Source: Verrucomicrobiales bacterium
GTDB lineage: Bacteria; Verrucomicrobiota; Verrucomicrobiia; Verrucomicrobiales; DEV007
Assembly (NCBI GenBank): GCA_041749135.1
Contig: JBGTBW010000146.1
Location: 9,573-73,572 of the forward strand
Direction: 5' to 3'
DNA length: 64,000 nt
Made by a program: the position numbers and the translations under genes. Every line of letters starts with the position of its first letter. The stretch's first letter is position 1. This document shows positions 23,167 through 58,365 of the stretch, piece after piece. The notes under the pieces were generated by a model, which was not told the origin of the DNA, searched no databases, and saw only the letters and a list, made by a program, of their open reading frames with translations.

Positions 23167-26100
23167 TTATCGGCGGACGCCGCGGTAGTAGCCGTCCGCC
23201 TTGCTCATGCGGTCCGGGTCATTGTCCATGAACTCCGTTCCGCCCGGGACATCGACGGCGATCGCCTCCCACGCAGCCGGCTCCATGGTCTCGGAGTACT
23301 CAACGTCCCAAGCGCCGCCGGCGGGTAGGGTCAAGGACAGACCTTCATCGGTCCAATGCACGTTCGAGAGCGGCGGCACGACGGCGCCTGGGGCCGGAGT
23401 CTGAACGGGGTTGCCGTCGGCGAGCGACAAACCGTTCAGCCCATAGTCATAGACCTGAGACGCTTCCCCTGCGCTGAGCGCACGGTTCCAGATCGCCACT
23501 TCCGACACCAGCCCGCTCCACATCTCGAGCCCGTTCTGCCCTCCCAGGTAAAGCGGCTGCGGGTTAATGGGCGTCCCCGTGATCGTCCGCGTCGCGATTT
23601 GGATCGCGTCGCGGTAATAGGTGAGGTTTGCGCCGTCTTTGACCACCAGGTTATGGGCCCATACGCCCACCGGGAACATCGTGGCCGCATCGCCTGCGTT
23701 CTCCCCAATCGCGTTGAAGTGCCATTCAAAGACTCGCGGCGTGATTTTGATGAATTCCCGGGGATCAAAGTCCGCACCGCTGGGAGCCCATCTGTTGCCG
23801 AACACGATGTTGTTGTTGTCCGTTTCAGCCGAGTTGGCCCAAAAACTCCAGGTGAACCCGTTTTCCAGCGTCATGCCTGGAAGGATCGTTCCGAAGTCGA
23901 CGTAAGACATCGCTGAAGACCCGTAGACGACTCCGCGCGCTGGGTCCTCGGTCCAAGTTCCGTCAGGCTGAATGATCGTGCCGTGGTTTTCGTTCCCGCT
24001 CGAATCCATTGCGACCGCTCCGGCGCCTTCGTTGAAGTGCCAGTATCCGAGCAGGCCGGGAACTCCACCGCTGGGCGCCGCCCGGATTCCGTAGAGCGAA
24101 CCGGTGTCAAAGCCTGCGTCGACGATGAAATTGGCTCCGCCGTGCGACGCTGGGTTGTCCGGGTCGGTCCAGTCTCCGTTGAAATAGCGCACGTCGACCG
24201 GATAGTATCCCGGAGACGGGAAGTTATAATTTCCGCTGACCGTCACGTTCCCGTGGCTATTGTCGTTGGCGATGACCAGTTGACCGGCGATGTAGAGCAC
24301 CGAGCCGTCGTCCGAGGTGAAGGTGAAGGTCTGCTGGCCTGGGGCATCGACTCTCAGGTATCCCTGGAAGCGCAAGACACCGTCGTCCAGGTTGCCTGCT
24401 GTACCTGGGCTGAGGGAGGCGGCGTCTGGACCGAGCCAGTTGGCAATCGGGGTGAGATCGTCGCCTTGGTAGTTAAACCTGGTCGCCGAGAAAGTTCCCG
24501 TAGCGTTGGTATTGAAGACGTTGTCGTCCGCCCAACCCGAGTTGGCTCCGCCGTCACCCGCGCGGTGCATGGGCTCGCCGTCGATTGGCACGGTTTTGGG
24601 GTCAAGATGCCAGTAGCTGGCGAGCAGACTGCCCTGGGGCCCGAGATCGTCGGGTTCATCGATGGGGGGCTCGACTTCCAGCCCCGCCATGTAGTTCACG
24701 GCGTTGAGAAATGCCGCAGCGCCGGTTGCGGTGAGGTTGTATTTGCCTGCGTCTCCGATGACGCTTCCATCCGGCTCACGGCTGCCTGCACAAAAGAGCA
24801 TCCGCGGTCCGGCTGCGACGGTCCCAGCGGGCCACTCGGCGACGACCACGCCGCCGCCGCCTGAGGCAATCCGTGTTCCTCCATTGATCACTGGATCGGT
24901 GGCAAGTGAAGTTCCGCGGTCCACCGCGACGTGCCAAGGAGCAGTGACTCCAACGTTGATCTCCAGGCCGTCGAAGACAGGGTGACCGGGCTGGTCGGCT
25001 TGTATTTGGGCCGGGGTGGCGTCGATGAGACCCTCGCCCCCAAACCAACCCCAGCGGCTGCTGCGGCTGTTATAGGGCGTCATTAGGATCAGCGGGGCTG
25101 TGATGAGATCGTCCCAAACAGCGTGATTGAAGGTTCCGCTGGTGGTTTTGCGGCTCACTACGACGAGGTCAACGGCGTTGAGGACCGCCTGCTCTTCGGC
25201 TGTCGGATTTGAGATCAACATTTCTGTAACCGTATGACCCTGGGCGGTGAGGGCCTCCTTGAATTCCTGGCCCGCCGGAGTGTCCACTTCGCTGATCCAG
25301 ACGATAGTGCGTGGAGGAATGTCCGGCCCGGTATCCTGCACGATCCGGACATAGTCGAACCCCACGATTTCGTTCCACCAAGTGGTCAGTGCGGAGAAGC
25401 GGATCACGAGGTTCGTGGCTCCGTCGGGGATGTTGAAGACGGCCTCTTTGAACACGGGGTCCAAGCGAGTGGTCCCGTTGGTGAAGTACTTGTCGTTGGC
25501 GGTCGGTGCGGAGAAATGGGTTAAGACAGAGAAGTTGCCGCTGTTGTGGGGGTCGATCAGGATGTCAAGATAATCGCTGGTCTCGAAGTCCAGAGTGGTG
25601 GCGGCCAGAAGAACTTTGAGTTTGAGGCCGTTTTTGCCGCTGACGTTGACGGGGTTGAGGGTGAGGGTTTTGGGCGCCGTACCGTATTTATCCAGACCCG
25701 CACCAGCGAAGAATCCGGAGCCTTCGAACTCGAGAAAGGCTCCGCCGCCGAAGACCTGACCGCCTTCGTCCGGGCCATTGATGCACACGATCACCGGGCG
25801 CTCTTCGAGAACGGTTCGCGGCTTCTCGTATTTGGTGATAGCGATTTCTCCTTCGAGGTTGATCGGCAGCACGTCGAGCCCCACTCCCTCCCAGTCGGCC
25901 AACGGAGCCCAGACGCTCTGGTCGTCGAGGGGATCGTTCTGCCCTGTGCCAGGCTGTTGGGTGAAGAAGATTTCGGAGCCGAACTCGGCGGTTGGGCTGT
26001 AGGCTCTCCATTCGAATGCGTAGGCGCCCGCTGCGGCGAAGGTGAAGTCGCCATAATTCGTTGTCGCCTCTATCTGGTTAGCAATGATGGCGACCTGGTC

Positions 26101-27222
26101 CTGCTCGATGACTGGGTCATTCGCGTCGATGCCGTTCCCATTGGTATCGATCCGGAGGCTGCCGCCCCCTGCGACCCAAAGTGCAAACCCATAGGAGCCG
26201 GCGGATTTCACGCTGATCTGACCCGTGCCGGCGATGGCAAAGCTGCCGACGGGGTTTCCCGGAGGCTGACGGTCTCCGGCGATGCCGCCGCCAGAGAAAT
26301 TGCCGCTGGCTCCGCTCTCAAGGTCGGCGATGTTGGAAGTGCCCTCGTCGACCATCGTTTCGATTGTACCCGCGACCATCTGTGCGACTTCGGCAAGGTT
26401 TTCGACGGGCGGAATATCGACGATCGGATAGGTGGCGACGACGGCCGATCCTTCCGGAACGAGAGTTCCCGGCATGTGGAGGGGCACTTCGCCCGTGAAG
26501 AAGGGAAAGCTTCCGGTCAACCCGGCAGCGGCGGGGTGGTCTGGAAGCTGAACTGTCACGTTGCCGAGATTGAAGTTTCCCGTTTCGCCAATCGAACTGA
26601 CAAGCTCGTCATCGTGGTCGGGCCCATTGTAGGTGAGGTATGGGACGGGGTAATTGGTGAAACGGCTCGGGCTGGCGGCGAGGCTTGAGTGAATCACGAG
26701 GTCGAAGTTCGCGTTGGGAGGTACGGGGGTTGCCACGTCGTCCCCGGTGAACGTCGCACCCTTGGCGGTCAACCGTTCGACAATGATTTGGTCGCCGGGC
26801 CCTCCTGCCGGCGGAGACATGAGGACACGCAGATTGGTTTTGTCTTTTGTCAGCCACGCGATGGTGGCGTCGAGCATGGCGAGGCCCTGCGCGGACACCT
26901 GAGCGGGCTCCAGCTCGCTCGACCAAGCGATCACTGCGCGCCGGGCCGGCGTCGCCGCGGGGACGCCGACAAGGGAGACGTCAAAGCTATGGCCCCAGTA
27001 GACCGGGCCGACCTGTTCGACGTCATTGATTCCATTGCCCGGATGGTCTGCGACTTCCGAGATGAGGCCGCCGGCGACAGTATAGCGGGTTCCGGCCCCG
27101 TTACCGTTGAAACCTTCCTCGAAGAGGACGGTTTCTTCGGCGGAACCCGGCACGAGAGACAGTAAGAGAAAGAGTGCAACAACCAGCCTCTTGCTCGATT
27201 GAGGTCTGAGGATTTTGCGCAT
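23167..27222 (-). CDS. Large (1,351 aa) secreted protein with two PA14-like modules, a LamG (Laminin_G_3-like) domain and the C-terminal FYR-type tail
   Basis: Signal peptide MRKILRPQSSKRLVVALFLLLSLVPGSA. PA14-like FQGYLRVDAPGQQTFTFTSDDGSVLYIAGQLV...VDVRYFNG. LamG-like LLGYWHFNEGAGAVAMDSSGNENHGT...GFTWSFWAN...VAIWNRALS. Ends ...GAWDVEYSETMEPAAWEAIAV...GYYRGVRR. Confidence 0.8.
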   Translation of the reverse strand: MRKILRPQSSKRLVVALFLLLSLVPGSAEETVLFEEGFNGNGAGTRYTVAGGLISEVADHPGNGINDVEQVGPVYWGHSFDVSLVGVPAATPARRAVIAWSSELEPAQVSAQGLAMLDATIAWLTKDKTNLRVLMSPPAGGPGDQIIVERLTAKGATFTGDDVATPVPPNANFDLVIHSSLAASPSRFTNYPVPYLTYNGPDHDDELVSSIGETGNFNLGNVTVQLPDHPAAAGLTGSFPFFTGEVPLHMPGTLVPEGSAVVATYPIVDIPPVENLAEVAQMVAGTIETMVDEGTSNIADLESGASGNFSGGGIAGDRQPPGNPVGSFAIAGTGQISVKSAGSYGFALWVAGGGSLRIDTNGNGIDANDPVIEQDQVAIIANQIEATTNYGDFTFAAAGAYAFEWRAYSPTAEFGSEIFFTQQPGTGQNDPLDDQSVWAPLADWEGVGLDVLPINLEGEIAITKYEKPRTVLEERPVIVCINGPDEGGQVFGGGAFLEFEGSGFFAGAGLDKYGTAPKTLTLNPVNVSGKNGLKLKVLLAATTLDFETSDYLDILIDPHNSGNFSVLTHFSAPTANDKYFTNGTTRLDPVFKEAVFNIPDGATNLVIRFSALTTWWNEIVGFDYVRIVQDTGPDIPPRTIVWISEVDTPAGQEFKEALTAQGHTVTEMLISNPTAEEQAVLNAVDLVVVSRKTTSGTFNHAVWDDLITAPLILMTPYNSRSSRWGWFGGEGLIDATPAQIQADQPGHPVFDGLEINVGVTAPWHVAVDRGTSLATDPVINGGTRIASGGGGVVVAEWPAGTVAAGPRMLFCAGSREPDGSVIGDAGKYNLTATGAAAFLNAVNYMAGLEVEPPIDEPDDLGPQGSLLASYWHLDPKTVPIDGEPMHRAGDGGANSGWADDNVFNTNATGTFSATRFNYQGDDLTPIANWLGPDAASLSPGTAGNLDDGVLRFQGYLRVDAPGQQTFTFTSDDGSVLYIAGQLVIANDNSHGNVTVSGNYNFPSPGYYPVDVRYFNGDWTDPDNPASHGGANFIVDAGFDTGSLYGIRAAPSGGVPGLLGYWHFNEGAGAVAMDSSGNENHGTIIQPDGTWTEDPARGVVYGSSAMSYVDFGTILPGMTLENGFTWSFWANSAETDNNNIVFGNRWAPSGADFDPREFIKITPRVFEWHFNAIGENAGDAATMFPVGVWAHNLVVKDGANLTYYRDAIQIATRTITGTPINPQPLYLGGQNGLEMWSGLVSEVAIWNRALSAGEASQVYDYGLNGLSLADGNPVQTPAPGAVVPPLSNVHWTDEGLSLTLPAGGAWDVEYSETMEPAAWEAIAVDVPGGTEFMDNDPDRMSKADGYYRGVRR

Positions 27223-27524: not shown

Positions 27525-27950
27525 ATGCTGGAGAATGGCAGGCCCGCCAGGCCCCCCGTGTTCATAAAGAACGAAAGGCTGGTGATCGATCCCGCTTACG
27601 AGAAGTATCTCGGCTTGATCCTTCTCGACCCGTCCGAGCCGCCGATGGTCTGGGAAGTGGGACGAAGCGACCGCCTCTACCGGAACGAGGGCCCCGGGCC
27701 GGACGGACTCCCCCGGTTCACCGACGTCAGTCAGGCAGCCGGAATTGAAGATCGCGATCATGCGCTTTCATGCCTCTGGACCGATCCGAACGAAGATGGC
27801 TACCCAGACCTCTTTGTCGCAAACGACTATATTGAGGCGGATCGTTTTTACGCCAACAACCATGACGGCACATTCCGGGAAGTCAGCCGGGCCGCGCTCG
27901 GGCACACGGCGTGGTTCTCGATGTGCTGCCGTTGGCCAGCTTTGTTCTGT
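27525..27950 (+). pseudogene. Isolated fragment of an ASPIC/UnbV (CRTAC1-like, FG-GAP/VCBS) repeat protein
   Basis: LYRNEGPGPDGLPRFTDVSQAAGI...DPNEDGYPDLFVANDY...FYANNHDGTFREVS are two canonical ASPIC/UnbV repeats. There is no N-terminal context or signal peptide, and the frame degenerates after ~140 aa. Confidence 0.4.
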
Positions 27951-28150
27951 TTAGACGAACATTGCTCCTTGGGGCAGTTTATTTGCCCCATAGGCCAAGA
28001 GCGGTTCCGATCTCCATTCCGCCAGCTTCTCTCTTAACATCCCATCCTCCTGGAACAACACCGCGCCGAAGCAGGCGATTCTGCTCGGTTGACATGCCGT
28101 CAAATCCCACCTATTCCCTGCTTGAGATCCTTGGCACAGGGATACAGACG

Positions 28151-29648: not shown

Positions 29649-31100
29649 TCATTGATAATGAACAGTCCAATTTCCGCCCGTATCCCGCTGCACCCGCTGA
29701 TCTGCTCCAACACGCTCACCACGGCGGCACGTGAGGCGGCCAAACCCCTCCAGGACCTGCTCGAGGACCGGCAACGCCCGGCCTACTTGGCGTGCCCGAA
29801 TGAGAAAATTCCAGAGCCCTTCGAACTTCTTCCAACCTGCCGCATACGCCGCATGCCGCAGCGCCGGCAATGCCTCCCCGTGGTTTAGGGCGCCGCGGAG
29901 AATGGAACCCCAAGTGTAAAACTCGCGATAGGCCCTCAGATAGCCCTCTTCGAGATCCTCGGGACGAAGCTGCGCCGGACGGAACACGCAGTGGCGCGTG
30001 TCGTACAAGTCCCAGTCGCGGTGCAGCATCCGTCCGGCCGCCTCCATCCGTTCGTGCAGCGCCGTCGACGGATAGGGCGTGAGAATATGAAAGGTTGCCG
30101 TCTCAATCGATTGAGAAACCGCCCAGTTCACCGTACGGTCGAACACCTCGGGACCGTCGCTGTCCATCCCAAACACAAAGCTTCCATTCACCATCACTCC
30201 GAGCCCGTGCAACCGGCGAATGGCCTCGCCGTAGTCCCGGTGCAGGTTCTGCCGCTTTCCTTGCTCAACCAGATTGTCTTCGTCGAGAGTCTCGAACCCG
30301 ACGAATAGACTCCGCAAACCGCAGTCCACCGCCTTCTCCAACAGACCCGGGCGCAGGACGGAGGAAACAGTTCCGGCGGCCTGCCAAAGCCGCCCCATCC
30401 CCTTCATACCGTCGAAGAGCATCGATGCGAACCGCACGTTTCCAAGGAGATGATCGTCGAGGAAATACAAGTGTCGGCCGGGCAACCGTTCGATCTCGGC
30501 CAGGGCATCGTCGACCGATTGCAGGTAGAATCCCGTGCCGCCGCGAAAGAAGGCCTCCTTGTAACAGAAGTCGCAACTGTGCGGGCAGCCGCGCGACACG
30601 ACAATTGAGTTGGGAACCAGATAGAGATGGCGGCGGATCAGGTCGCGGCGCACCGGGGGAAGGCCGGCCAAGGAACGTTGCGACGGCGCGCAGTAGACCG
30701 GAGCCTGCCTGCCGCGACGAAAGTCGGCAAGGAACCGCGGCCAGGTGTCGTCCCCCGGACCGAGGAACACCGTGTCCGCATGCTGAGCGGCTTCCTCCGG
30801 CAAAGAGGTGACATGAAGCCCTCCCAGGCACACGTAGGCCCCGCGTGCCCGGTAGTGATCGGCGATCTCGTAGGCGCGCCGGGCAGAGGTGATATAGACC
30901 TGGATGACTACCAGGTCAGGCTCGTCGTCGAGACGGAGTCGCTCGACGTGTTCATCTTGGAGATCGACAACGTCCAGGTCCGGGTCGAGCCAGGACGCGA
31001 GACTCGCGAGCCCGAGTGGCGGGAACAACGAGTACTTGATGGGTCGAAAGAGCGGGCTCACCGCTTCGGTGAGCGCGGGCAAGATCATTTTGACGCGCAT
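29649..31100 (-). CDS. B12-binding domain radical SAM protein (class B radical SAM family)
   Basis: N-terminal cobalamin-binding-like region (DLVVIQVYITSARRAYEIA). Radical SAM cluster motif CPHSCDFC (CxxxCxxC). Confidence 0.75.
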   Translation of the reverse strand: MRVKMILPALTEAVSPLFRPIKYSLFPPLGLASLASWLDPDLDVVDLQDEHVERLRLDDEPDLVVIQVYITSARRAYEIADHYRARGAYVCLGGLHVTSLPEEAAQHADTVFLGPGDDTWPRFLADFRRGRQAPVYCAPSQRSLAGLPPVRRDLIRRHLYLVPNSIVVSRGCPHSCDFCYKEAFFRGGTGFYLQSVDDALAEIERLPGRHLYFLDDHLLGNVRFASMLFDGMKGMGRLWQAAGTVSSVLRPGLLEKAVDCGLRSLFVGFETLDEDNLVEQGKRQNLHRDYGEAIRRLHGLGVMVNGSFVFGMDSDGPEVFDRTVNWAVSQSIETATFHILTPYPSTALHERMEAAGRMLHRDWDLYDTRHCVFRPAQLRPEDLEEGYLRAYREFYTWGSILRGALNHGEALPALRHAAYAAGWKKFEGLWNFLIRARQVGRALPVLEQVLEGFGRLTCRRGERVGADQRVQRDTGGNWTVHYQ

Positions 31101-31402
31101 GAATCGAAAACCACTGAGTCGACACGGAGCGAGGGCCCGTTACTTTGTGTGACAAAGTCCAGGCGCTTCTGTTCATTTCATTCCCACTTTTCTCTCCCTC
31201 CATCTCCCCCCCCCACGGAGAAAGTACGGGGCGCCACCGTGCAAATCATGCCAAAAACGGATCGCCGCTATCGCAGCTTCCCCTCCGATGGGCTGCACTA
31301 TAAAACCCTGCCGGGATTCCACTGGCCGCTTCCCTCCATTTCTGTTAACCCAATCCGCAGTCCGTAAAACCGGACCGAACGAGAATCTCATCCTGGACAA
31401 CC

Positions 31403-33574
31403 ATGAAATACGTGCTGCTCGCCATTGCCGTTGTCGCCATCGGTTTCTTCACGCTCTTCTTCGTCTTTTGCATCCGAAAGATCCAGCCTGGGCGCGCCGG
31501 CATCAAAACCGGTTGGGGGGGCCTCAAGGTCGCTTTCGATTGGATGGTGCGCATCCCGCTCGTCCAGACCTACCACATCATGGATATCTCCGTGAAGAAG
31601 CTGGAGATCGCGCGCAAAGGCAAGGACGGCCTCGTCTGCAAAGACAACATTCGCGCCGACATCACGGTGGCCTTCTACATCCGCGTCGACGCCACCGAAG
31701 AAAGTGTCCGCAAAGTGGCGCAGATGCTCACGCCCGAACGCGTGTCCGATGTGGAGCAGTTGCGCGAACTGTTTGAAGCCAAATTCTCCGAAGCGCTCAA
31801 GACAGCGGGCAAACAGATGGAGTTCCACGAACTTTTCACCGAGCGGATCAAGTTCCGCGACCAGATTCAGGGAACCATCGGCAAGGACCTCGATGGTTTC
31901 CTGTTGCAGGACGTGGCGATCGATTACCTCGAACAGACGCCGCTCGATCAGCACGACCCCAGCAACGTGCTCGATTCCGAAGGCATCAAGAAGATTACGG
32001 AGATCACGCAGCGCGAGCGCGTAATGGCCAACGAATTCACCCAGCGCGCCCAGGTGCAAGTGGAGAAGGAAAACGCCGACGCTGACATCGCCAAACGCGA
32101 GCAGAAGCGGCGCAACGAGGAGGACACGGCCAAGCAGTCCCGCGCCATTATGGAAGTAAAAGCCAACGAAGAAGCCGAAGCCCGCAAGGTGATTGAAGCA
32201 CGGCGCCAGGAAGTGGAAGCGAAACGCTTGGAGACCGAAGAATCGATTCGCCTGCGCACTGAGGACATGAATCGCGCGGTGCAGGAGCGCGAATTCACCG
32301 TCACGAAGGAGAAGCAGCGCCTCGAACAGGAAGCAGTGCAGGAGGGCGACGAGGCGCGCGTGCGACGTGAACGCACCGTAGCGCTCGCTGAAATGGACAA
32401 GGAAACCAAGGTCGCGGAAGTCGCCGTCGAGGTCCAGCGCAAACGCGCCACCGTTGTGGCGGAAGAGAAGGCGGTCGTCCAGCAGCAGGAGGAAAAGAAC
32501 AACATCGAGGCCCGCATGACCGCTGAACGCGTGCGCGAGGTCACGCTCATCGAGGCAGAGATGAATGCGAAGCGGGACCAGGTCCAGAAGGTGGTTGCTT
32601 CGGAGGCGCATAAGGAAGCCGAGCGCAATCTGGCGGAAGCGGAGAAGATCAAGATCATCACCGCAGCCGAGGCTTCGCGGGAGGCTGCATCACGCGAGGC
32701 CGAACAACTGCAAACCCTCGCCGACGCCGAAGCCAAGGCTTCGGAGAAAAAGCGTCATGCCGCGGAACAGGAAGCGGAAGGTCTGGCCGCCACCGAAGCG
32801 GCTATGGGTCTCGCCGAAGCCAAAGTAATCACCGCCAAAGCCACCGCTAAAAAGGCCGACGCCGGCGCGATCAGGGAGCTGGGACTCGCCGAAGCCGCGG
32901 TGGCCAAGGCCAAGGGAGACGTTCATGCGGAAGTCACTCAAATGCAGGCCGAGGCCGAGGCGGAAGGAACCAAGGACCGTGAACTCGCCGCCGCCGCGGG
33001 GATCGAGGCCCGCGGTTTGGCCGAAGCCAAAGCCATCGAGCAAAAGGCCGAAGCGATGAAACTCCTGCATGAAGCCGGCAAGGAGCACGAGGAGTTCAAG
33101 CTCAGACTGTCGAAGGATCGAGACGTCGAACTCGCCGCCATTCACGTGCAGAAAGACATCGCTCAGGCGAACTCCACCATCGTGGGCGAAGCCCTCAAGC
33201 ACGCGAATATCGATATCGTTGGGGGAGAGAATGACTTCTTTGAGAAAGTGGTGCGCGCCGTGAGCACGGGCAAGGCCGTGGATCGCATGGTTGGCAACAG
33301 TGAGACGCTGGCCGACATCAAGAACACGTTTCTTCATGGCGACCCGGAGCCGCTCAAGGTCCAGATGCGGAAGTGGATCAAAGACTTCGGCATCAAGTCC
33401 GAGGACGTGAAGAACCTGACCATTGCGGCTCTCCTCGGAAAGCTGCTGGCGAGCACGAGCGATGCCTCGGTTCAGAAACTGATGAACTCGGCGCTGACGA
33501 TGGTTTGCGAGCGCGGGATGGCGGAGAAGCCGGCGTCCGCCCTGATTTCACCATCGGCCTCGGAGGGTAGCTGA
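31403..33574 (+). CDS. Flotillin-like SPFH/band-7 protein with an N-terminal membrane anchor and a very long (~450 aa) Glu/Ala/Lys-rich coiled coil
   Basis: TM segment MKYVLLAIAVVAIGFFTLFFVFCI. SPFH core GGLKVAFDWMVRIPLVQTYHIMDISVKKLEI (compare flotillin GGxAFVxPxxQKVxRLDLRTMTL). Then an extended EA-rich heptad region (AEQEAEGLAATEAAMGLAEAKV...). Confidence 0.75.
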   Translation: MKYVLLAIAVVAIGFFTLFFVFCIRKIQPGRAGIKTGWGGLKVAFDWMVRIPLVQTYHIMDISVKKLEIARKGKDGLVCKDNIRADITVAFYIRVDATEESVRKVAQMLTPERVSDVEQLRELFEAKFSEALKTAGKQMEFHELFTERIKFRDQIQGTIGKDLDGFLLQDVAIDYLEQTPLDQHDPSNVLDSEGIKKITEITQRERVMANEFTQRAQVQVEKENADADIAKREQKRRNEEDTAKQSRAIMEVKANEEAEARKVIEARRQEVEAKRLETEESIRLRTEDMNRAVQEREFTVTKEKQRLEQEAVQEGDEARVRRERTVALAEMDKETKVAEVAVEVQRKRATVVAEEKAVVQQQEEKNNIEARMTAERVREVTLIEAEMNAKRDQVQKVVASEAHKEAERNLAEAEKIKIITAAEASREAASREAEQLQTLADAEAKASEKKRHAAEQEAEGLAATEAAMGLAEAKVITAKATAKKADAGAIRELGLAEAAVAKAKGDVHAEVTQMQAEAEAEGTKDRELAAAAGIEARGLAEAKAIEQKAEAMKLLHEAGKEHEEFKLRLSKDRDVELAAIHVQKDIAQANSTIVGEALKHANIDIVGGENDFFEKVVRAVSTGKAVDRMVGNSETLADIKNTFLHGDPEPLKVQMRKWIKDFGIKSEDVKNLTIAALLGKLLASTSDASVQKLMNSALTMVCERGMAEKPASALISPSASEGS

Positions 33575-33593
33575 GAACTCCGCGCCGCAACGT

Positions 33594-36500
33594 ATGCCCG
33601 ATACGCCCCAGCCGAATCAACCGCCGCCCGCCTCGACCGGAGAAGTTGGCCAGCCGGTTGCGGCGTCAGTGACGTCCTCACTCGGCAGCGCCACTTACGA
33701 GATCATCCGCCAGCGATTGCACGCGCAGGGTGAACATCTGCGCGATCGCACGGCGCAATTGAACGCACGGCGGCAGGAGGTCTTTGGCGCGATTGACTTC
33801 AAGCTCCTTCAATCCGACCGCGTCATCACCGCGCACAACTGCATTCCGCAAGACATCGTGCAACTGGGAAGCGGGCGCTTTCTCTTCGGCTTCAATGTGC
33901 AATTCGGGCTCAAGAAAGAAATCGATCTCGGCGATGTCTTTGCCATTTACAATCGGGATGAGGCGGCGGGCACGTTCAAGGAAGGCAGCTTGGAAGTGCT
34001 GGAGCAGAAGGACTTCATCACGGACTTTAAGCGGCTCTACAACGTCTATGAGCGCGCGTATTTCTCCAAATTCTCGCTCTTGGAAGGCAATCTCTACATG
34101 CTCTTCCAGGTCGGCGCCGCAGTGACCGACATCGCGGTTTTCAAGTTTGCATTCCACGGCGGGCACCTGCGCTATCTCGATGGCCGCGCCGAGTCTGAGT
34201 TCCGCAAATTGGGTTTCCCGCCGCAGTATGAGTTCCGCTGGCTGACGCCGGATCGCGAGTCCTTTCGCTACGGCGATCATCCGCACATCTCCATCGAGGA
34301 CCGCCTCTTCGTCGAGTGCGTCGGCGGCGACCTGACGATCAAAGTCGAGGACAACACGATGACGGGTGAAGGCGTTTTTGCCGAGCCCGTCGAGGACAAA
34401 TTCCAAAAGGTGGACGACGCGGAAATCCGATACGCGCTGATCGGCCATCTGATCCTGCTGCGCATCCGCCCCTACAAGGAACAAGCCGCGCGCTATTTCA
34501 TCTTCAACGAGAGAACCCAGACGGCGGTGCGCGTCGATTCGATCGGTCAATCCTGCGCCCTGCTGCCGGAGGATCATGGGCTGGTCTTTCCCGACGGTTA
34601 TTATCTCTCGACGGGAGATCTGAAGCAGTTCGAAAGCAAAGAACGCGACATGATTCTCGAGCGCGTCATCCATGCTCCCACTGGCGAAGATACCCTCTAT
34701 GTGTTCTACAATCGCGCCACCGGACACTATGTGCTGATGCCTTACCGGCTCATTGCTCAAAAGATCGAGGAACGGATCACGTGCAACGGCTTCTCCTTGT
34801 TCGCGAACGGTCTACTCATCGTCTTGCGCGCCGACGACCAACCGCAGAAACATCACATGTTGCAACTGCGGCAGACCCCGTTTCATCAGCCAGGCCACGA
34901 ACCGCCCGGCCAGCGGGACGCGTTTCTTTATCAGGTGGGCAACAAGGACGTCGTGCGCTGCCTCGCCGAGTGCAACGAAGTATTGACGCTCGTGGGCAAG
35001 GCAGATCCTTACCCCGAGCTTTACGCGGATTTAGTGAAACGCGCCGGTTCCATTCTGGACAACTACTCGTGGTTGAACACTCCCGAGTGTTTTCAGATCG
35101 ACGCGGCGCTCCGCCATCTGCGGGAGGTCGCAGACAAAGCGGTCGACGAGTTCGACAAGGTGCGCCGCTTGCAGCACGAAGCCGTAGAACGCGTCGCCGA
35201 TATGCGGCAGCGCGCGGAGGAACGCTTCGGCATTCTGCGCCGAGCGAGTTTCAAGACGCTGAATGATTTCGTGCAGAATCTCGCGGCCCTGCGCCAGTTC
35301 CGAGGTGAATTGATCTCGCTCAAGGAGGTTCGCTACGTGAACCTCGCCCAAATCGAGGAATCGGAAAGCACCGTGACGCAACAGACGGAGGAACTTTCCA
35401 AAGCCTGCGTGCAGTTTCTGCTTCAGCCAGCGGCGCTGGAGCCTTATCGCAAGCAGGCCGGCGAAAATCTAGCGGCGGTCGATACAGTTACAAAGGCCGC
35501 AGATGGGAAGAAGATCGAGAAGGCGGTTTCTGACGCGGGTGCGGAACTGGAGATGCTGATCGAAATCGTGAACAGCCTTCAGATCGAGGACGCGACCGAG
35601 ACGACCCGCATCATCGACGGCGTCACCGCGATTTACTCGACGCTCAACCAAGTCAAGGCGGCGCTGAGAAAGAAGTTGCAGAGCCTCGCTGCCTCGGAGG
35701 GCGCGGCCCAGTTCAGCGCGCAGATGAAGCTGTTGAGCCAATCGACGGCGAGCTACCTCGATCTCTGCGACTCGCCGGCGAAGTGCGACGCGTATCTCAA
35801 CCGGCTCACGGTGCAGATCGAAGAACTGGAAGGGGCCTTTGCGGATTTCGAGGAATACACAGTTCAACTCGCCGAGAAGCGCACCTCGGTTTATGAGACG
35901 TTCGAGCAGCGCAAGATGGCGCTCCTTGAGCAGCGCAATCGGAAGTCGTCCGCGTTGATGACGGCGGCGGAGCGCATCCTCAAGGTCATCCAGAGCCGGC
36001 TCGCCGGTTCCAAATCCGTCGAAGAAATCAACACTTACTTGGCGTCGGATCTGATGATCGCCAAGGTGCGCGAGATCATTGAGCAATTGATGGCGCTGGA
36101 AGATTCGGTCAAGGCGGACGACTTGCAGGGCCGGCTCAAGAGCTTGCAGCAGGAATCCCTGCGGCAATTGAAGGATCGACTGGAGTTGTTTGTGGATGGC
36201 CAGCAGGTCATTCAACTCGGGAAGCATCAGTTCAACATCAACACCCAGCCGCTGGACCTCACCGTGGTGATTCGCGACGGCGTCCAGCATCTGCATCTGA
36301 CCAGCACCAAGTTTTTCGAGCCGATTCAGGACGAGGCGTTTCTCGCCACGCGCGACGTATGGGACCAGGAAATTGTCTCCGAGAACGCGGAAGTTTATCG
36401 CGGTGAATACCTCGCCTACCGGGTCTTGCAACTGCTGGAAGCTGGCGCGGGCGCCACGCCAGCCCCGCTCGGCAAGCTGCCCAGCGCCACGGGCGGAAGC

Positions 36501-39089
36501 GAAACGACGGAACCAGGGGCTGGGTTCACCGATGAGTCCGCTTCCGTTCCGCCAGGCCCCTTGGCAGCCGTCACAAGCCAAGGGGATGTCCTGCCCAGGA
36601 CCGGGAAGACCATCGCCCAGGTCCTCGCGATGCCGGATGCGGAACGCCTGACATTCGTCCAGGAGTTCATGGCCGCGCGCTATCAGGACGGCTACACCAA
36701 GGGGATTCACGATTACGACGGCGCTCGCATCCTTCAGGCGCTGCTCAGCACACACGTTGCGTTGCAACTGGCGCGCTATCATCCAGCCGCCCGCGCTTGC
36801 GCCGTGGTTTACTGGCACAAGTTCTGTCCGGGGGAAACGCGGGCGCTCTGGCAGGCCAAACTCAAGGGATTCTCCGCCCGCAACAAAGTGTTTCCAGGCG
36901 ATGCCGTGCAACGCGGTTACATCGCCGCGCTGCAAGCGTTGCTCGCGGGATTCGCCGAACAAACTCAGCTCTTCCCACGCGAGGAAGCGGCGGCGGCGGG
37001 CGAATATTTGTTTTGGGAAATCATCAGCGGCGACGCCTTTGTCGTGAGCCTGGAAGCCGATCAGTTGGCCGGAGACTTGCACAAACATCTAGTCGCGAAG
37101 TCCGGCGACGATGAGTTCCGCGAAGCCATGGATTCTTTGAACGACCACCCGGCCAGTCAGTTCGAGCTGATTCGCGATTGGGTGCGCGGGTTCCTGCTCG
37201 AACGCGCTGGCGGCCTCATTCCATACATCGACGAGATTGCGGCCATTCTCTTCGTGGGCGACGATCTCCAACACGCGGTCGTGCGTTCCGGCACACAGCA
37301 GTCGCTCGACGCCATGAAGGGCGCGCACGCCGTCATCCGCGAGGGCAAGTATCCATTCGATTACCTGGCCTTCCGGCGGAAACTCGCGCGCTTCGAGGAG
37401 GAAATCGTGCCGCGCTTCGAGCGGTTCCATCAGCTCAAGCAGCATTTGCTGGATCGCGAGCGCAGCCATTTGCGCCTGCACCAATTCAAGGCCCGGGTGC
37501 TCACGTCGTTCGTCCGCAATCAGCTCATCGATCGAGTTTATCTGCCGCTCGTTGGCGATAATCTCGCGAAACAAATCGGCGCCGCGGGCAATGCCAAGCG
37601 CACGGACTTGATGGGCCTGCTGTTGCTCATCTCGCCGCCGGGCTACGGCAAGACGACGTTGATGGAATACATCGCGAACCGGCTCGGCATCATTTTTGTG
37701 AAGATCAACGGGCCAGCCCTCGGCCATGCCGTCAGGTCCCTCGACCCGCAAGAAGCGCCGAATGCCGCCGCGCGCGAGGAGGTTCAGAAACTGAATCTCG
37801 CCCTTGAGATGGGCGACAACGTGATGCTTTGCGTGGACGACATCCAGCACTGCCATCCGGAGTTTCTGCAAAAGTTCATTTCGCTTTGCGACGCACAGCG
37901 CAGGATCGAAGGCGTCTGGCGTGGGCAGCCGCGCACCTATGATCTGCGCGGCCGCAAAGTTGTCGTGGTGATGGCGGGCAATCCCTACACGGAGAGCGGA
38001 CAGAAATTCCAACTTCCCGACATGCTTGCGAACCGCGCGGACACTTACAATCTGGGCGACATCATCGGCGGCAGCGCGGAGTGGTTCAGAATGAGCTATC
38101 TCGAGAATGCCGTCACATCGAACGCCGTGTTGGCTCCGCTCGCCAACAAGAGCCAAAACGACGTGCGCACCTTCATTCGTCTAGCGGAAGGCGCGCGGGA
38201 TGACGCCGCCTTCGAGGGCAGTTGCTCGCAGCAGGAGGTGGAAGAGATTCTCGCAGTGATGAAGAAGCTGGTTGCCGTTCGGGAAGTGCTCCTGCGTGTG
38301 AATCAGGAATACATCCACTCGGCGGGCCAGGCGGACGAGTTCCGCACCGAGCCGCCGTTCCGTCTGCAAGGTTCCTACCGCAACATGAACCGGCTCACGG
38401 AAAAGATCGTGCCGATCATGAACGACTCTGAAGTGCAGGGGCTCATCCTCGACCATTATCAGAACGAGGCGCAAACGCTCACGACGGGCGCCGAGGCGAA
38501 TCTGCTGAAGCTGAAGGAATTGCTTTCCATTCAATCGCCCGAAGAGAAGGCGCGCTGGGAGGAGATCAAACGCACTTTCCAACGCAATCAACTCACGCGC
38601 GGCGGCGATCAGTCGGACCCGATGGGCCGCGTCGTCACGCAACTCTCGGTATTTCAACAGGGTCTTGAAGGCATTCAGAACGCGCTCGAGAAGCAGTCAA
38701 TCAAAGCGCCGGCGCCCGTAGTCGTTGACGTGGCTCCGCTCGGACGCAGCTTCGACGCCTTGCGGACGGCGATCGAAGAGAACGTAGCGACCGCCGGCAA
38801 CAGCAGCTCGGTGGAAATGCGCAACCTCATGCACGAGATGGAGATGTTGCACAGCACGCTGGCGACATTGAAGGATCTTGCGGCCCAGCAACGCGACCAT
38901 TTGCGCTCGGCCCAGGATCTTTTGCAAACGCGTGCAGAGCAGGGCGTTGTGGAAATCCAGCTTACCCAGGAGATGCTGACAAACGAGCGGGCTTTCCTGG
39001 AGAAATTCCACGAAGTTCTCGCTTCGGCGGGGCGAGGGACCGAGCAAGAGTCTCTGCAAGCAAACGATCAAGACAAGGGCAACCTTTAG
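33594..39089 (+). CDS. Giant (1,831 aa) cytoplasmic protein. Unknown N-terminal ~480-aa domain, ~700-aa coiled-coil region, and a C-terminal AAA_5 (MoxR/dynein/midasin-type) ATPase module. Flotillin-associated.
   Basis: No signal peptide or TM segment. Walker A LLLISPPGYGKTTL (nt ~37630-37665), Walker B NVMLCVDDIQH, sensor-1-like KVVVVMAGNPYTESG...LPDMLANRAD (the ATMNP pattern typical of AAA_5). Long heptad-rich central region. Starts 19 nt after the flotillin stop. Confidence 0.75.
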   Translation: MPDTPQPNQPPPASTGEVGQPVAASVTSSLGSATYEIIRQRLHAQGEHLRDRTAQLNARRQEVFGAIDFKLLQSDRVITAHNCIPQDIVQLGSGRFLFGFNVQFGLKKEIDLGDVFAIYNRDEAAGTFKEGSLEVLEQKDFITDFKRLYNVYERAYFSKFSLLEGNLYMLFQVGAAVTDIAVFKFAFHGGHLRYLDGRAESEFRKLGFPPQYEFRWLTPDRESFRYGDHPHISIEDRLFVECVGGDLTIKVEDNTMTGEGVFAEPVEDKFQKVDDAEIRYALIGHLILLRIRPYKEQAARYFIFNERTQTAVRVDSIGQSCALLPEDHGLVFPDGYYLSTGDLKQFESKERDMILERVIHAPTGEDTLYVFYNRATGHYVLMPYRLIAQKIEERITCNGFSLFANGLLIVLRADDQPQKHHMLQLRQTPFHQPGHEPPGQRDAFLYQVGNKDVVRCLAECNEVLTLVGKADPYPELYADLVKRAGSILDNYSWLNTPECFQIDAALRHLREVADKAVDEFDKVRRLQHEAVERVADMRQRAEERFGILRRASFKTLNDFVQNLAALRQFRGELISLKEVRYVNLAQIEESESTVTQQTEELSKACVQFLLQPAALEPYRKQAGENLAAVDTVTKAADGKKIEKAVSDAGAELEMLIEIVNSLQIEDATETTRIIDGVTAIYSTLNQVKAALRKKLQSLAASEGAAQFSAQMKLLSQSTASYLDLCDSPAKCDAYLNRLTVQIEELEGAFADFEEYTVQLAEKRTSVYETFEQRKMALLEQRNRKSSALMTAAERILKVIQSRLAGSKSVEEINTYLASDLMIAKVREIIEQLMALEDSVKADDLQGRLKSLQQESLRQLKDRLELFVDGQQVIQLGKHQFNINTQPLDLTVVIRDGVQHLHLTSTKFFEPIQDEAFLATRDVWDQEIVSENAEVYRGEYLAYRVLQLLEAGAGATPAPLGKLPSATGGSETTEPGAGFTDESASVPPGPLAAVTSQGDVLPRTGKTIAQVLAMPDAERLTFVQEFMAARYQDGYTKGIHDYDGARILQALLSTHVALQLARYHPAARACAVVYWHKFCPGETRALWQAKLKGFSARNKVFPGDAVQRGYIAALQALLAGFAEQTQLFPREEAAAAGEYLFWEIISGDAFVVSLEADQLAGDLHKHLVAKSGDDEFREAMDSLNDHPASQFELIRDWVRGFLLERAGGLIPYIDEIAAILFVGDDLQHAVVRSGTQQSLDAMKGAHAVIREGKYPFDYLAFRRKLARFEEEIVPRFERFHQLKQHLLDRERSHLRLHQFKARVLTSFVRNQLIDRVYLPLVGDNLAKQIGAAGNAKRTDLMGLLLLISPPGYGKTTLMEYIANRLGIIFVKINGPALGHAVRSLDPQEAPNAAAREEVQKLNLALEMGDNVMLCVDDIQHCHPEFLQKFISLCDAQRRIEGVWRGQPRTYDLRGRKVVVVMAGNPYTESGQKFQLPDMLANRADTYNLGDIIGGSAEWFRMSYLENAVTSNAVLAPLANKSQNDVRTFIRLAEGARDDAAFEGSCSQQEVEEILAVMKKLVAVREVLLRVNQEYIHSAGQADEFRTEPPFRLQGSYRNMNRLTEKIVPIMNDSEVQGLILDHYQNEAQTLTTGAEANLLKLKELLSIQSPEEKARWEEIKRTFQRNQLTRGGDQSDPMGRVVTQLSVFQQGLEGIQNALEKQSIKAPAPVVVDVAPLGRSFDALRTAIEENVATAGNSSSVEMRNLMHEMEMLHSTLATLKDLAAQQRDHLRSAQDLLQTRAEQGVVEIQLTQEMLTNERAFLEKFHEVLASAGRGTEQESLQANDQDKGNL

Positions 39090-39097
39090 GGCCGCGT

Positions 39098-39889
39098 ATG
39101 AAACGATTGATACACAGAGTGCAGGACGTGCGTCAGAAGGCGGGGCAGATCGCCTCGGCCCTCGAACAGGCGCCGGCGAAGGCAGCGGAATTGCGCGAAC
39201 GGGTGCTGGCCACCGCCGGGCACATGCACCAGATGCAGCGCACGGTGCAGGACGCCGCAACGGGATTGGCGGCGCCCCACGAAGACATGCTTATCGCTGC
39301 GTTGCACGAGATCGACGGCGACGCGGAGACGTTTCGCGCCGCGGGCTATGAGCTTGAAGACGTCGAGATGGAACTCGCCGCGCCACAGAGATTGATCATT
39401 CATCTCGAAAAGGTTGGCGACGTTCTGGCTTCCACGATGCGCTCGCTGGCAGCCGCCAAGGCCCATCACCCCACCACGCACGGCATCCTGAGCGCGCTCC
39501 TCAAAGCGGACGACATGTCCGAGAAGGTGGCGCTTCAGAATCTGCGCTATCATCAATTGACCGTTTATATGGGACCGGCGCCGACGGTTCGGCTGTGCTG
39601 GCAGGCGTCCTCCATTGCAGCGCCGCCTCCTCTGCCGGCCGGCAGTCCTGCCGTCGCCGCGGCGCCGGGCAGTTCTGCCTTCACCTCGCTGCTCGGCCAA
39701 AGCTCTTTCTTCGAAGCGCGTCCCGGGCAGGCTTCGCCCCCAGCAGGGGACCCCGTTTCTCCTGACGTTCCGGCGCCCGAATCGGCGCCTGAGACCGCAT
39801 CGACCCCAGCGCCGCCGGCCGATCCGCCGGCCAAAGAAGATCCGCTGGCGCGCTTTAAGAAAATGCCAGACCTCTCGCGGCGCCGTTGA
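39098..39889 (+). CDS. Hypothetical protein with a coiled-coil N-terminal half and a Pro/Ala-rich C-terminal half. Third gene of the flotillin locus.
   Basis: Starts 8 nt after the giant ATPase stop. LRERVLATAGHMHQMQRTVQDAA... is helical. C-terminus PPPLPAGSPAVAAAPGSSAF...PAPPADPPAKEDPLARFKKMPDLSRRR. Confidence 0.5.
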   Translation: MKRLIHRVQDVRQKAGQIASALEQAPAKAAELRERVLATAGHMHQMQRTVQDAATGLAAPHEDMLIAALHEIDGDAETFRAAGYELEDVEMELAAPQRLIIHLEKVGDVLASTMRSLAAAKAHHPTTHGILSALLKADDMSEKVALQNLRYHQLTVYMGPAPTVRLCWQASSIAAPPPLPAGSPAVAAAPGSSAFTSLLGQSSFFEARPGQASPPAGDPVSPDVPAPESAPETASTPAPPADPPAKEDPLARFKKMPDLSRRR

Positions 39890-40114
39890 CAATCGACCAG
39901 GAAAGGGTCACAAGCATCATTGCCGTCATGCATTCCTTTTCTGAATATGGCGGCGTGTGTTGGCCAGCACCCGGAGTTGCGATGCAGGAACAACCTCGGT
40001 AAAGTGCGGGCCGTGAGTATCGCCGACTGGCGTCCGCGAAACGGGACCTGGACGAAGGATATGCCTTTTACGAATCGCAGGAAGAGGGGCTGGGTGATTA
40101 CTTGCGGCGAAAAC

Positions 40115-40591
40115 ATGATCGTTGTCGCAGATAGAAGTCATACTCGAGCCTGGCTACGACTTCGCCGGCAAGTGTATTCCTCGCTTGGAGATGATTTTCA
40201 TGATCAGGAAATTGAGACTTGGTTGACTGATTCGACCAAATGTTGCTGGATCGCGTTTGAAGAAGGTGAAGCCGTCGGCTTTCTCGAGGCATCGCTGCGA
40301 AACATTGTCGATGGCTGCCTTTCCTCTCCGGTTGGCTACATCGAAGGGATCGCCGTTCTTCCGCCATGGCGCGGCAAGGGGATCGCCCGAACTATGATGT
40401 TGGCCGCAGAGGAATGGATGTGCCGGCAAGGCTGCTCGGAGGTCGCAACCGACGCAGAAATCGAGAATCGGGAGGCCATCACATTTCACAAGAACATGGG
40501 ATTTGAAGAAACATACCGCATCGTGGAGTTCCGCAAAAACCTGCCGGCCGAACAAGACGCTCGCCCTGGCCAGGGTTGGGTGAGCTCGTAG
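40115..40591 (+). CDS. GNAT-family N-acetyltransferase
   Basis: Acetyl-CoA binding motif A IAVLPPWRGKGIARTMMLAAEEW (Q/RxxGxG/A), then ...FHKNMGFEE. Start chosen at the internal Met (MIVVADRS) of a longer ORF. Confidence 0.65.
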   Translation: MIVVADRSHTRAWLRLRRQVYSSLGDDFHDQEIETWLTDSTKCCWIAFEEGEAVGFLEASLRNIVDGCLSSPVGYIEGIAVLPPWRGKGIARTMMLAAEEWMCRQGCSEVATDAEIENREAITFHKNMGFEETYRIVEFRKNLPAEQDARPGQGWVSS

Positions 40592-41459: not shown

Positions 41460-42089
41460 ATGTCCTCTTCAAACCAAGGCGCCCCCACGGCCCGCCCCAG
41501 GCAAGGACGGCCTCCGCGCCGCCGCAATGGCCAGGACGGCCGGCGCCGTCAGTACACCCGCATGCCGCGGCCGGAGCCATTCAAGCCCAATGCCTGGCAG
41601 CGCTTCCTGGCCATCGTTTCCTTTGGCCTCTACAAACCGGCTCCCACCGCTCCGACCGCCCGGCCTCCACGTAGGCCGGAGGGAACTTCGCGCCCGGTGG
41701 CCTCGGCCCCCGATCAGAACGACTCCTGGCGCGGAGCGGGTTCCGGGACGCGTTCCCGGGAGCCCCGCTCAACGCCTTCCAAACCCCAGGTTTTCTCCGC
41801 CACCTCTGAGCGGATTTACGTGGGGAACCTCTCCTACGACGCTACTGAGTCCGATCTTTTCGAGCTTTTCAGCGGGGTTGGGACGGTGAAAAACGCGGAA
41901 GTGGTTTGCAATCGCCGGACTCAACGCTCGAAAGGCTACGCCTTTGTGGAAATGCAGAGTTTGGACGAGGCCAAACGCGCTGTGACCGAGTTGCACGACA
42001 AGGACTACATGGGCCGCAAACTCGTGGTGTCCGGAGCCAAAGCCCGCACCGGGCTGGAAAGCGAAGACGACGCCCCACCGGCGGCTTGA
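41460..42089 (+). CDS. RRM-type RNA-binding protein with a ~110-aa Arg/Pro-rich disordered N-terminal extension
   Basis: RNP-2 RIYVGNLSY and RNP-1 KGYAFVEM in canonical spacing. Confidence 0.7.
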   Translation: MSSSNQGAPTARPRQGRPPRRRNGQDGRRRQYTRMPRPEPFKPNAWQRFLAIVSFGLYKPAPTAPTARPPRRPEGTSRPVASAPDQNDSWRGAGSGTRSREPRSTPSKPQVFSATSERIYVGNLSYDATESDLFELFSGVGTVKNAEVVCNRRTQRSKGYAFVEMQSLDEAKRAVTELHDKDYMGRKLVVSGAKARTGLESEDDAPPAA

Positions 42090-55981: not shown

Positions 55982-56067
55982 GGGTAGGTACCGAAGCGGT
56001 CAAACGGGGCAGACTGTAAATCTGCTGGCTTACGCCTTCAGTGGTTCGAATCCACTCCTGCCCACCA
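55982..56067 (+). tRNA. tRNA-Tyr: tRNA-Tyr (anticodon GUA), long variable arm, CCA encoded
   Basis: Manual cloverleaf: acceptor gggtagg/cctgccc, 3-bp D stem ccg/cgg, anticodon stem gcaga/tctgc with loop ctGTAaa, variable arm hairpin ggc-ttac-gcc, T arm agtgg-ttcgaat-ccact, discriminator A + CCA. 86 nt. Confidence 0.9.
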
Positions 56068-57885: not shown

Positions 57886-58365
57886 ATGTTGTTAGCCGTA
57901 ACTCCTTTTCTTTCTAGAGTCGGGGAGATCCTTGGCGCCCTTGTTTTCATTGTTGCACTATCCGCAACGGTATACGGGCTGTCGAAGTACATTGACTCGA
58001 GAATTAAGTCACTCTTTCTCCAGGACCGGGAGCTTTTGCGCAAAATCGCGCAGGCGGCTCGGCCGATTGCAATCTTCGATCAGAAGGGAACGGTTTTATA
58101 TGACGGTGGTGCTTCCGAATTCATAGAGTCGCTTTCAGTTAAACTAAACGAAGAACCAGGCAGTTTTGCTGAGGGCTTTCCTAAAGAGATTGTTATTAAG
58201 TCAAAACGATTTCTGCATAGTGCTCCACTCATAGTATCTATTGACCCTGATGATGTGGAGATCACGTCGCGCCGATCCGCCATGTCCGATTGGATTTACA
58301 GGTTGGAGTACAGTGGATATAGCACTCGAGAGGTAACAAGATTCCGAATCGAGATTCTTCGGTAA
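57886..58365 (+). CDS. Small membrane-anchored hypothetical protein (N-terminal TM + ~120-aa soluble domain), in the low-GC island
   Basis: TM segment ILGALVFIVALSATVYGL. Lies 60 nt downstream of the previous gene with the same architecture. Confidence 0.4.
   Translation: MLLAVTPFLSRVGEILGALVFIVALSATVYGLSKYIDSRIKSLFLQDRELLRKIAQAARPIAIFDQKGTVLYDGGASEFIESLSVKLNEEPGSFAEGFPKEIVIKSKRFLHSAPLIVSIDPDDVEITSRRSAMSDWIYRLEYSGYSTREVTRFRIEILR

Follow-up and report, generated by a model that had tools for sequence, protein, structure and literature searches.

The window analysed here is a 64,000-nucleotide (nt) stretch of contig JBGTBW010000146.1 (assembly GCA_041749135.1) from a Verrucomicrobiales bacterium, and the element in question is a set of three consecutive open reading frames (ORFs) on its + strand. 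The first encodes a YqiK-type flotillin of 723 amino acids (aa) (A, 31403..33574), the second a giant cytoplasmic DUF3686-DUF7902-AAA+ protein of 1831 aa, to which NCBI gives the name 'DNA repair ATPase' (B, 33594..39089), and the third a clade-specific soluble protein of 263 aa (C, 39098..39889). The spacers are 19 nt between A and B and 8 nt between B and C. A preliminary description of the locus had given these ORFs, both spacers and the ATPase motifs quoted below, and all were as described when the ORFs and the sequence were re-read.

The linkage between the flotillin and B was followed through 80 loci from a species scan together with one further locus (L001), a locus being evaluable when it carried enough upstream sequence. 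In all but two of the 66 evaluable loci (64 of 66), B is immediately preceded by a flotillin homologue on its own strand, and the A-B pair was seen in at least 11 phyla. Within the species scan the pair ranges over Verrucomicrobiota, Planctomycetota, Bacteroidota, Desulfobacterota, Myxococcota, Bacillota (Clostridia), Lentisphaerota, Acidobacteriota and Gammaproteobacteria, and annotated records add Actinomycetota (Streptomyces), Deinococcota (Deinococcus), Proteus mirabilis and Vibrio campbellii. These four all have the order YqiJ-like gene, flotillin, B; in the Streptomyces record a "flotillin family protein" is followed by a "DNA repair ATPase". Two of the records with this order, from Proteus mirabilis (L091, NZ_OL790811.1) and Vibrio campbellii (L092, NZ_CP050465.1), are labelled as plasmids; the 4-Mb Proteus 'plasmids' are probably chromosomes, and the 2-Mb Vibrio record is probably a second chromosome or chromid. 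The junctions in L001 are short or overlapping (65 nt and -4). In addition, the flotillin gene and B are separated by an IS200-type Y1 transposase block in one clade locus (L086, 4722-5993) and by a DUF559 Vsr-like endonuclease gene in Hymenobacter and Flavobacteriales loci (L024, 7392-7949; also L025 and L026).

The complete A-B-C trio is found, with its order kept, in ten loci of one Verrucomicrobial clade (the window included), and the flanking genes differ entirely between these genomes. The proposal of a real, membrane-linked functional unit is therefore borne out by the A-B adjacency and by the recurrence of the trio among unrelated flanks. The idea of a three-gene module holds for this clade, in which the trio is conserved; elsewhere the core is the flotillin and B. 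In other words, flotillin plus B is the universal core, the three-gene form is specific to one Verrucomicrobial clade, and the window carries a lineage-specific variant of a widespread and vertically well-conserved operon. The check suggested in the preliminary description left the flotillin-B module standing, as Pfam has only an uncharacterised DUF for B and the neighbouring position of the two genes is strongly conserved.

The loci also showed recurrent partners of the pair. Of 61 evaluable loci, 51 have a gene of a YqiJ/NfeD-like family of about 220 aa immediately before the flotillin, and two more loci have it with an intervening gene. This family matches E. coli YqiJ with an hhalign probability of 95.6%, and YqiJ_N matches it too. 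Eight of the ten evaluable loci without an adjacent YqiJ-like gene belong to the C-carrying Verrucomicrobial clade, among them L001, L003-L006 and L079, and L086-L088 are likewise without it; the other exceptions are L053 and L061, together with L073 and L075, where a gene lies in between. The ATPase had been thought to stand in place of an NfeD-family partner, whereas the wider comparison places a YqiJ-like gene before the flotillin in most relatives, and its absence from the window is a clade-specific loss or replacement.

PspA is the other recurrent partner. PspA profile matches were found in 14 loci, and three lineages have a PspA gene joined to the A-B pair. In the Bacteroidota, a divergent HTH-S24 gene is followed by CesT_Tir_1, PspA, YqiJ-like, flotillin A and B; this order was found in Aquimarina, Tenacibaculum and Cyclobacteriaceae loci, and DUF4178 and DUF350 genes sometimes prolong the operon at its downstream end. 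Two Phycisphaerae loci have a PspA/IM30 gene directly after B, in the position that C occupies in the window (L021, 6790-7479, E 2.4e-13; L047, 4766-5449, E 4.2e-21). The linkage of A-B to YqiJ/NfeD-like and PspA genes is thus recurrent and independently arranged.

The operon had been called apparently undescribed, but in its searched text the study of Ravi et al. 2024 (mSystems, PMC11237479; preprint 2020) already reports operons of flotillin and AAA+ ATPase genes, in which YqiJ/YuaF and a TM-Band-7-flotillin are joined by a "novel AAA+ ATPase with beta-propeller and coiled coil". According to the same text, such operons often include a CesT/Tir-PspA dyad, abbreviated operons without PspA occur too, some proteobacterial versions are associated with phospholipase D (PLD), and a role in membrane stress was proposed from the same kind of context. 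As far as that text describes these phage-shock-protein (PSP)-associated operons, their flotillin and the architecture of their ATPase (propeller-like head, coiled coil, AAA+) match A and B, and our Bacteroidota B loci show the published gene order exactly. From the identical gene order in related Flavobacteriia and from the architecture, we infer that the Dokdonia ATPase of that text is equivalent to B. The window differs from the operons of that text in lacking both the YqiJ/YuaF gene and the CesT-PspA dyad, and it adds C, a family that the searched text of PMC11237479 does not describe. Measured against that text, the flotillin-B operon is already described and uncharacterised by experiment, and the YqiJ-less form with C is a new variant.

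Compared with the YqiJ-YqiK pair of E. coli and the YuaF-FloT pair of B. subtilis, A is homologous to YqiK, and the upstream gene of its relatives is homologous to YqiJ. In contrast to the window, yqiK of E. coli K-12 is followed by sibD/ibsD and not by a B gene; conversely, the YqiJ-like partner present in E. coli is missing from the window.

The assignment of A to the YqiK type is supported by its Band_7 domain, its gene context and a profile comparison, in which the A family matched E. coli YqiK over 393 columns at 30% identity (hhalign probability 100%, E 2.9e-41). The protein starts with a hydrophobic membrane anchor (aa 1-24, 31403..31474); all ten Kyte-Doolittle windows above 1.6 lie at this N-terminus, from residue 1, and none was found elsewhere in A, or in B or C. 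The SPFH/Band_7 domain follows (aa 26-167, 31478..31903; PF01145, 40.5 bits against a cut-off of 23.6, E 3.9e-10), and it was found solely when the N-terminal 266 aa were scanned separately. The Pfam and NCBIfam scans of full-length A returned no match, probably because of its Glu/Ala-rich compositional bias. This bias resides in a helical, coiled-coil region (aa ~190-560, 31970..33082; 20% Ala and 19% Glu), in which a crude heptad heuristic marks Pro-free segments at 209-245, 280-320, 327-355 and 414-553.

Beyond the helical region, A has a C-terminal region that is conserved within its subfamily (aa 555-720, 33065..33562). It is matched by tblastn across phyla, for example by query residues 554-723 in L017 and 555-710 in L033, and H562, E563, E564, G607 and G608 are invariant. 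The C-terminal fragment has no Pfam match, and PF15975 (Flot) was not detected in it. A is about 170 aa longer than the 553-aa E. coli YqiK and had been described as unusually long, whereas its 723 aa are typical of its subfamily, which has a median length of 700 aa (66 homologues). PDB sequence searches with A, its SPFH part and the family profile gave a single match, to the coiled coil of QmcA, and nothing useful beyond it.

B was found to belong to a large family. At E ≤ 1e-5 it has 2551 database matches, the best 120 of which are 63-81% identical and come, where the organism is named, from Verrucomicrobial bacteria with the exception of one binned as Methylomirabilota; the name 'DNA repair ATPase' is common among the matches. 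A pattern scan with one genome per species found relatives in at least 582 species representatives, and the N-terminal domain falls into 674 clusters at 50% identity, with most complete entries among the best 150 being 1600-1930 aa long. Both the architecture, with PF12458 at the N-terminus, PF25472 in the stalk and a C-terminal AAA+ module (E 1.6e-06), and the length of about 1600-1900 aa are shared by the homologues. Below, residues are called invariant in B when they are so among 22 relatives of 29-49% identity drawn from a 50%-identity representative library, and regional values are mean identities to the window, and gapped positions, across 21 relatives of the same identity range.

The N-terminal part of about 480 aa, previously considered unrecognised, is DUF3686 (aa 49-491, 33738..35066; PF12458, E 2.5e-161). 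Structure models of database proteins show a long helix here, then a divergent beta-propeller-like domain, then a helical exit. A helical, coiled-coil spacer of about 370 aa follows (aa 501-870, 35094..36203), as judged from alignment gaps and heptad segments, and it contains DUF7902 (aa 614-696, 35433..35681; PF25472, E 4.5e-22). About 190 aa of the spacer, and 233 aa of the whole protein, score as coiled coil in the crude heptad test. The spacer is only 28-40% identical to that of the relatives, yet 0.1-0.2% of its positions are gapped, and it being virtually gap-free across such diverse relatives implies a fixed length. This suggests that the spacer may be under a length constraint and act as a 'molecular ruler'.

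The next region is a conserved middle domain (aa 871-1295, 36204..37478), which has no Pfam match and is not coiled coil by the heptad heuristic. It contains the motif GxHDxD, with G1037, H1039 and D1042 invariant (36702-36719), and a lineage-specific, low-complexity insert rich in Gly, Pro, Ala and Thr (aa 960-1015, 36471..36638), which shows 10.3% identity and is 84% gapped in the other relatives. Consequently, the coiled coil of about 700 aa proposed for B shrinks to the spacer, and the rest of that stretch is a separate domain.

The AAA+ P-loop core (aa 1341-1500, 37614..38093) is the most conserved part of B, with a mean identity of 70.5% and 0% gapped positions; it is recognised by Pfam as AAA_5 (28.6 bits) and AAA (27.3 bits). 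All AAA+ hallmarks are present. The Walker A motif SPPGYGKT (aa 1347-1354, 37632..37655) lies in a run that is invariant from S1347 through T1355. In the Walker B motif VMLCVDDIQ (aa 1410-1418, 37821..37847), D1415, D1416, I1417, Q1418 and H1419 are invariant, and so its acidic pair is an invariant Asp-Asp (VDDIQH), not Asp-Glu. The segment VVVVMAGNP...PDMLANRAD (aa 1456-1483, 37959..38042), with invariant N1463, P1464, P1475, D1476 and R1481, presumably supplies sensor-1 and a candidate arginine finger, roles that we assign from general knowledge of AAA+ proteins. The core is followed by a conserved lid/C-terminal domain (aa 1501-1700, 38094..38693; 46% mean identity) with an invariant EPxFxLQGSYRxM motif, in which R1584, E1586, P1587, F1589 and Q1592 through R1596 are invariant, and by a variable C-terminal tail (aa 1701-1831, 38694..39086) of 11.5% identity and 44% gapped positions, with a heptad-like segment at 1740-1783. 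As B has no hydrophobic segment, it is cytoplasmic, and its description as a cytoplasmic protein with an intact AAA+ module is confirmed.

The class of this module is less firm. Its assignment to AAA_5 stands as far as the Pfam match is concerned (28.6 bits against a cut-off of 22, 127 of 139 model positions aligned), but the likeness to RavA that would go with it is weak (hhalign E 0.0015, probability 17%). The comparison with FtsH aligned just 34 P-loop columns, and the B profile gave weak, P-loop-only matches to p97, NVL, Rix7 and RuvB in the PDB. We take the pattern NP...G...LPD..L.NR after sensor-1 to be MoxR-like. B differs from the MoxR/RavA proteins in being three to six times longer than MoxR proteins and in having no VWA partner, since no VWA match was found in A, C or the scanned flanking genes.

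C has no Pfam family and is represented by 99 database clusters. Its folded part (aa 1-170, 39098..39607) is predicted to consist of a helical hairpin (2-57) and an alpha/beta domain (62-170); the latter is predicted with confidence, and the structure model has no convincing match in the PDB. The C-terminal third is rich in Pro, Ala and Ser and contains 24% Pro, in agreement with the earlier view of C as Pro-rich. It is largely a disordered, poorly aligned linker (aa 175-247, 39620..39838), with a predicted local distance difference test score (pLDDT) below 50 at 185-244. Within this linker lies a short conserved motif, GQSSFFEAR (GQSSFFExR; aa 200-208, 39695..39721), and in an alignment of 29 sequences its F205 is invariant while S203 and E206 are kept in at least 90%. 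A second motif, DPLARFKKMPDLS, ends the protein (aa 248-260, 39839..39877) with invariant L250, F253, K254, M256 and P257, and among 82 loci it is present just in those that carry C.

Matches to the C profile hidden Markov model are confined to Verrucomicrobial loci of the Limisphaerales/Pedosphaera type. C was found in L001, L003-L007, L079 and L086-L088, in addition to the window and the contig of the window itself (L002), and it lies on the opposite strand in L007. In other phyla, the stretch downstream of B has neither C homologues nor C-like tail motifs, and its genes are heterogeneous, apart from PspA in the Phycisphaerae. C is also unrelated to the YqiJ-like family (hhalign probability 0.1%). 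In L088, a PLDc_2 gene of the HKD phospholipase D family (12191-12916) comes directly after the C homologue, which echoes the PLD association given in the searched text of Ravi et al. (PMC11237479).

From these architectures and gene contexts, we propose that the operon may encode a membrane-stress machine in which B remodels flotillin or PspA assemblies or their clients and C is a clade-specific adaptor or regulator, a proposal for which we consider the chances to be evenly balanced. A would assemble into a membrane-anchored SPFH ring or cage on the cytoplasmic face of the membrane, and B would dock on this assembly via its propeller head, its stalk or both. As an AAA+ protein, B would presumably form an oligomer and hydrolyse ATP, so as to remodel, load, unload or disassemble the flotillin/PspA assembly or the clients held by it, and the joint action of A and B would serve the maintenance of the membrane or envelope under stress. 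C would stand in for the YqiJ-like partner and serve as an adaptor or regulator peculiar to the clade, its tail motifs docking on B or A. A more specific version of the proposal has B as a dedicated, ATP-driven flotillin/PspA remodeller following the logic of Vps4/ESCRT-III or FtsH/HflKC, the stalk as a ruler spanning the flotillin cage, and C as a new soluble adaptor that functionally replaces NfeD/YqiJ in one Verrucomicrobial clade through its two tail motifs; this version is tentative, and we think it distinctly less probable than the general one.

Known systems offer partial precedents for such a machine. The HflK/C-FtsH complex, in which an SPFH cage encloses an AAA+ machine, is the best precedent for an AAA+ enzyme under the control of SPFH proteins. 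A and B resemble it in that an SPFH-family scaffold is coupled, genetically or physically, to an AAA+ ATPase at the membrane. Unlike FtsH, however, B has no Peptidase_M41 match and no transmembrane segment and carries a propeller-like head and a long stalk, and the A-B topology is expected to be cytoplasmic while that of HflK/C-FtsH is periplasmic. The ESCRT-III/PspA polymers with Vps4 are similar by analogy only: a membrane-bound polymer is served by a dedicated AAA+ remodeller, and PspA is encoded beside A-B elsewhere. ESCRT-III subunits recruit Vps4 through short tail motifs, and the Pro-rich linker of C likewise leads, again by analogy only, to a short conserved helix at the end of the protein. 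In contrast, B has no MIT domain or Vps4 signature, the window has no PspA gene, and the C motif does not follow the consensus of the MIT-interacting motif (MIM). Among the flotillins themselves, FloA-NfeD acts on unfolded proteins as a holdase that needs no ATP (PMC11222466), and this property, together with the HflK/C-FtsH precedent, makes an ATP-dependent flotillin partner plausible.

Several points weigh against the membrane-stress machine. The A-B-C mechanism is drawn from gene context and domain logic, and the physical link between the proteins is presumed. As B matches RavA weakly and FtsH over the P-loop only, its AAA+ module could act by substrate threading or as a switch, and the invariant Asp-Asp of Walker B could mean that hydrolysis is slow or regulatory. 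Two loci, from a Desulfobacteraceae (L015) and a Cytophagaceae (L018) genome, have a full-length B and no flotillin within 8 kb upstream. The transposase and endonuclease genes between A and B imply that strict translational coupling is not needed. Finally, the whole 64-kb window has no match to the YqiJ-like, PspA or CesT_Tir_1 profiles.

Some of these features would suit a B that is mainly structural, namely a tether or 'molecular ruler' whose stalk sets the distance between head and platform for a cargo and whose AAA+ module is a nucleotide switch or an oligomerisation hub. The essentially gap-free spacer, the presence of one AAA+ module per 1831-aa chain, the propeller-like head as a typical protein-binding module and the Asp-Asp Walker B, if it does mean slow hydrolysis, all favour this explanation. 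However, the catalytic residues, including sensor-1 and the putative arginine finger, are invariant in the strongly conserved AAA core, which points to real catalysis, and the conserved neighbourhood offers no candidate cargo besides flotillin, YqiJ and PspA. We consider a purely structural role rather unlikely. An anti-phage or conflict system, raised in the preliminary description as a defence-related machine, would have the membrane SPFH protein and the large NTPase sense infection and trigger membrane damage. Some defence contexts do feature SPFH proteins and large coiled-coil NTPases, a DUF559 endonuclease gene or an IS200 transposase is occasionally found inside the locus, and a PLD-family gene follows C in L088. 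This role was not sustained: the PADLOC match is a 30-residue P-loop match to mad8 (E 0.0074) and not credible, there is no phage homologue, and the 13 matching records among 72,556 plasmid records are plasmids of 0.17-0.56 Mb and multi-megabase records that are probably chromids or chromosomes. In addition, the flanking genes are housekeeping genes that differ between loci, for a conflict gene the sequence is very strongly conserved between phyla, and A, B and C are without an effector domain, and we therefore regard defence as improbable.

Even less probable, in our judgement, is that B is a DNA repair ATPase to which the adjacent flotillin is functionally irrelevant. This explanation draws on Pfam, which describes PF12458 as an 'ATPase involved in DNA repair', on the NCBI names 'DNA repair ATPase' and 'DNA repair protein' and on the weak P-loop matches to RuvB. 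However, Pfam and NCBIfam find no SMC, RecN, SbcC, Rad50, nuclease or DNA-binding domain in B, nor any other repair domain, and the RuvB similarity covers about 45-60 residues around the P-loop at 23.5 bits, far under the family cut-off of 282 bits. The genes conserved beside B encode membrane proteins (flotillin, YqiJ-like, PspA), and repair genes are not among them. Literature searches on DUF3686, PF12458, DUF7902, flotillin with 'DNA repair ATPase', and YqiK with YqiJ and ATPase found no paper, and no experimental study of B was found. The label 'DNA repair ATPase' is unsupported, and the name most likely stems from the generic annotation of a coiled-coil ATPase. As for the possibility that three unrelated genes came together by chance, no consensus of a promoter or a terminator bounds the operon, and the GNAT gene downstream and the radical-SAM gene upstream are not conserved partners. 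The recurrence of flotillin directly before B in many phyla, and of A-B-C among different flanks in the clade, refutes a chance neighbourhood and leaves this explanation with a negligible probability.

B bears on the function of bacterial flotillins, which recent work presents as ATP-independent holdases (PMC11222466), and on the building, loading and dismantling of their assemblies. Across at least 11 phyla, and with at least 582 species as carriers, the gene of B nearly always comes right behind that of one flotillin subfamily, which makes B the obvious candidate for the missing energy-dependent step; public records mislabel it as a 'DNA repair ATPase'. The carriers include the tractable Vibrio campbellii, Proteus mirabilis, Myxococcus, Streptomyces and Deinococcus, which makes the function of B directly testable. 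The variant in the window, with no YqiJ and the new C, is a natural experiment on the contribution of the NfeD-like partner.

Around the operon, the flotillin gene is preceded by an intergenic region of 302 nt on its own strand (31101..31402, +), on the other side of which lies a divergent B12-binding radical-SAM gene (29649-31100, -) that is not a conserved neighbour in other loci. From its position alone, this region is presumed to be the operon's promoter region; the promoter scan found 0 promoters and no sigma-70-like consensus in it, and the scan of the locus found terminators only at the level of the shuffled background. Downstream, a GNAT acetyltransferase gene (39920-40591, +) starts 30-57 nt past C and could be co-transcribed with it in the window; the other C-carrying loci have no GNAT gene. 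Further upstream of A-B-C are the genes of a 1351-aa PA14 and LamG protein (23167-27222, -) and of a small FG-GAP protein (27525-28037, +), neither of which adjoins the module in other genomes.

The remainder of the window contains the ORF of a giant, adhesin-like surface protein (4019 aa; 744-12803, -), which has Big_9, cadherin-like, FG-GAP, LamG and beta-helix repeats. A sensor kinase gene carrying Reg_prop/Y_Y_Y propellers (13591-16686, -) and a PSCyt2/PSD1 (DUF1549/DUF1553) protein gene typical of Planctomycetota and Verrucomicrobiota (47002-49116, +) are consistent with an origin of the window in the Planctomycetes-Verrucomicrobia-Chlamydiae (PVC) group. We also noticed an RNA-recognition motif of eukaryotic type (RRM_1, E 2.5e-22) in one bacterial protein (41460-42089, +). 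A tRNA-Tyr gene (55982-56067, +) is followed by a stretch of low G+C content (about 58000-62200; 0.51-0.54 against 0.60-0.68 elsewhere), which may be an integrated element and which includes the gene of a 645-aa AAA and AAA_lid_6 protein (60256-62193).

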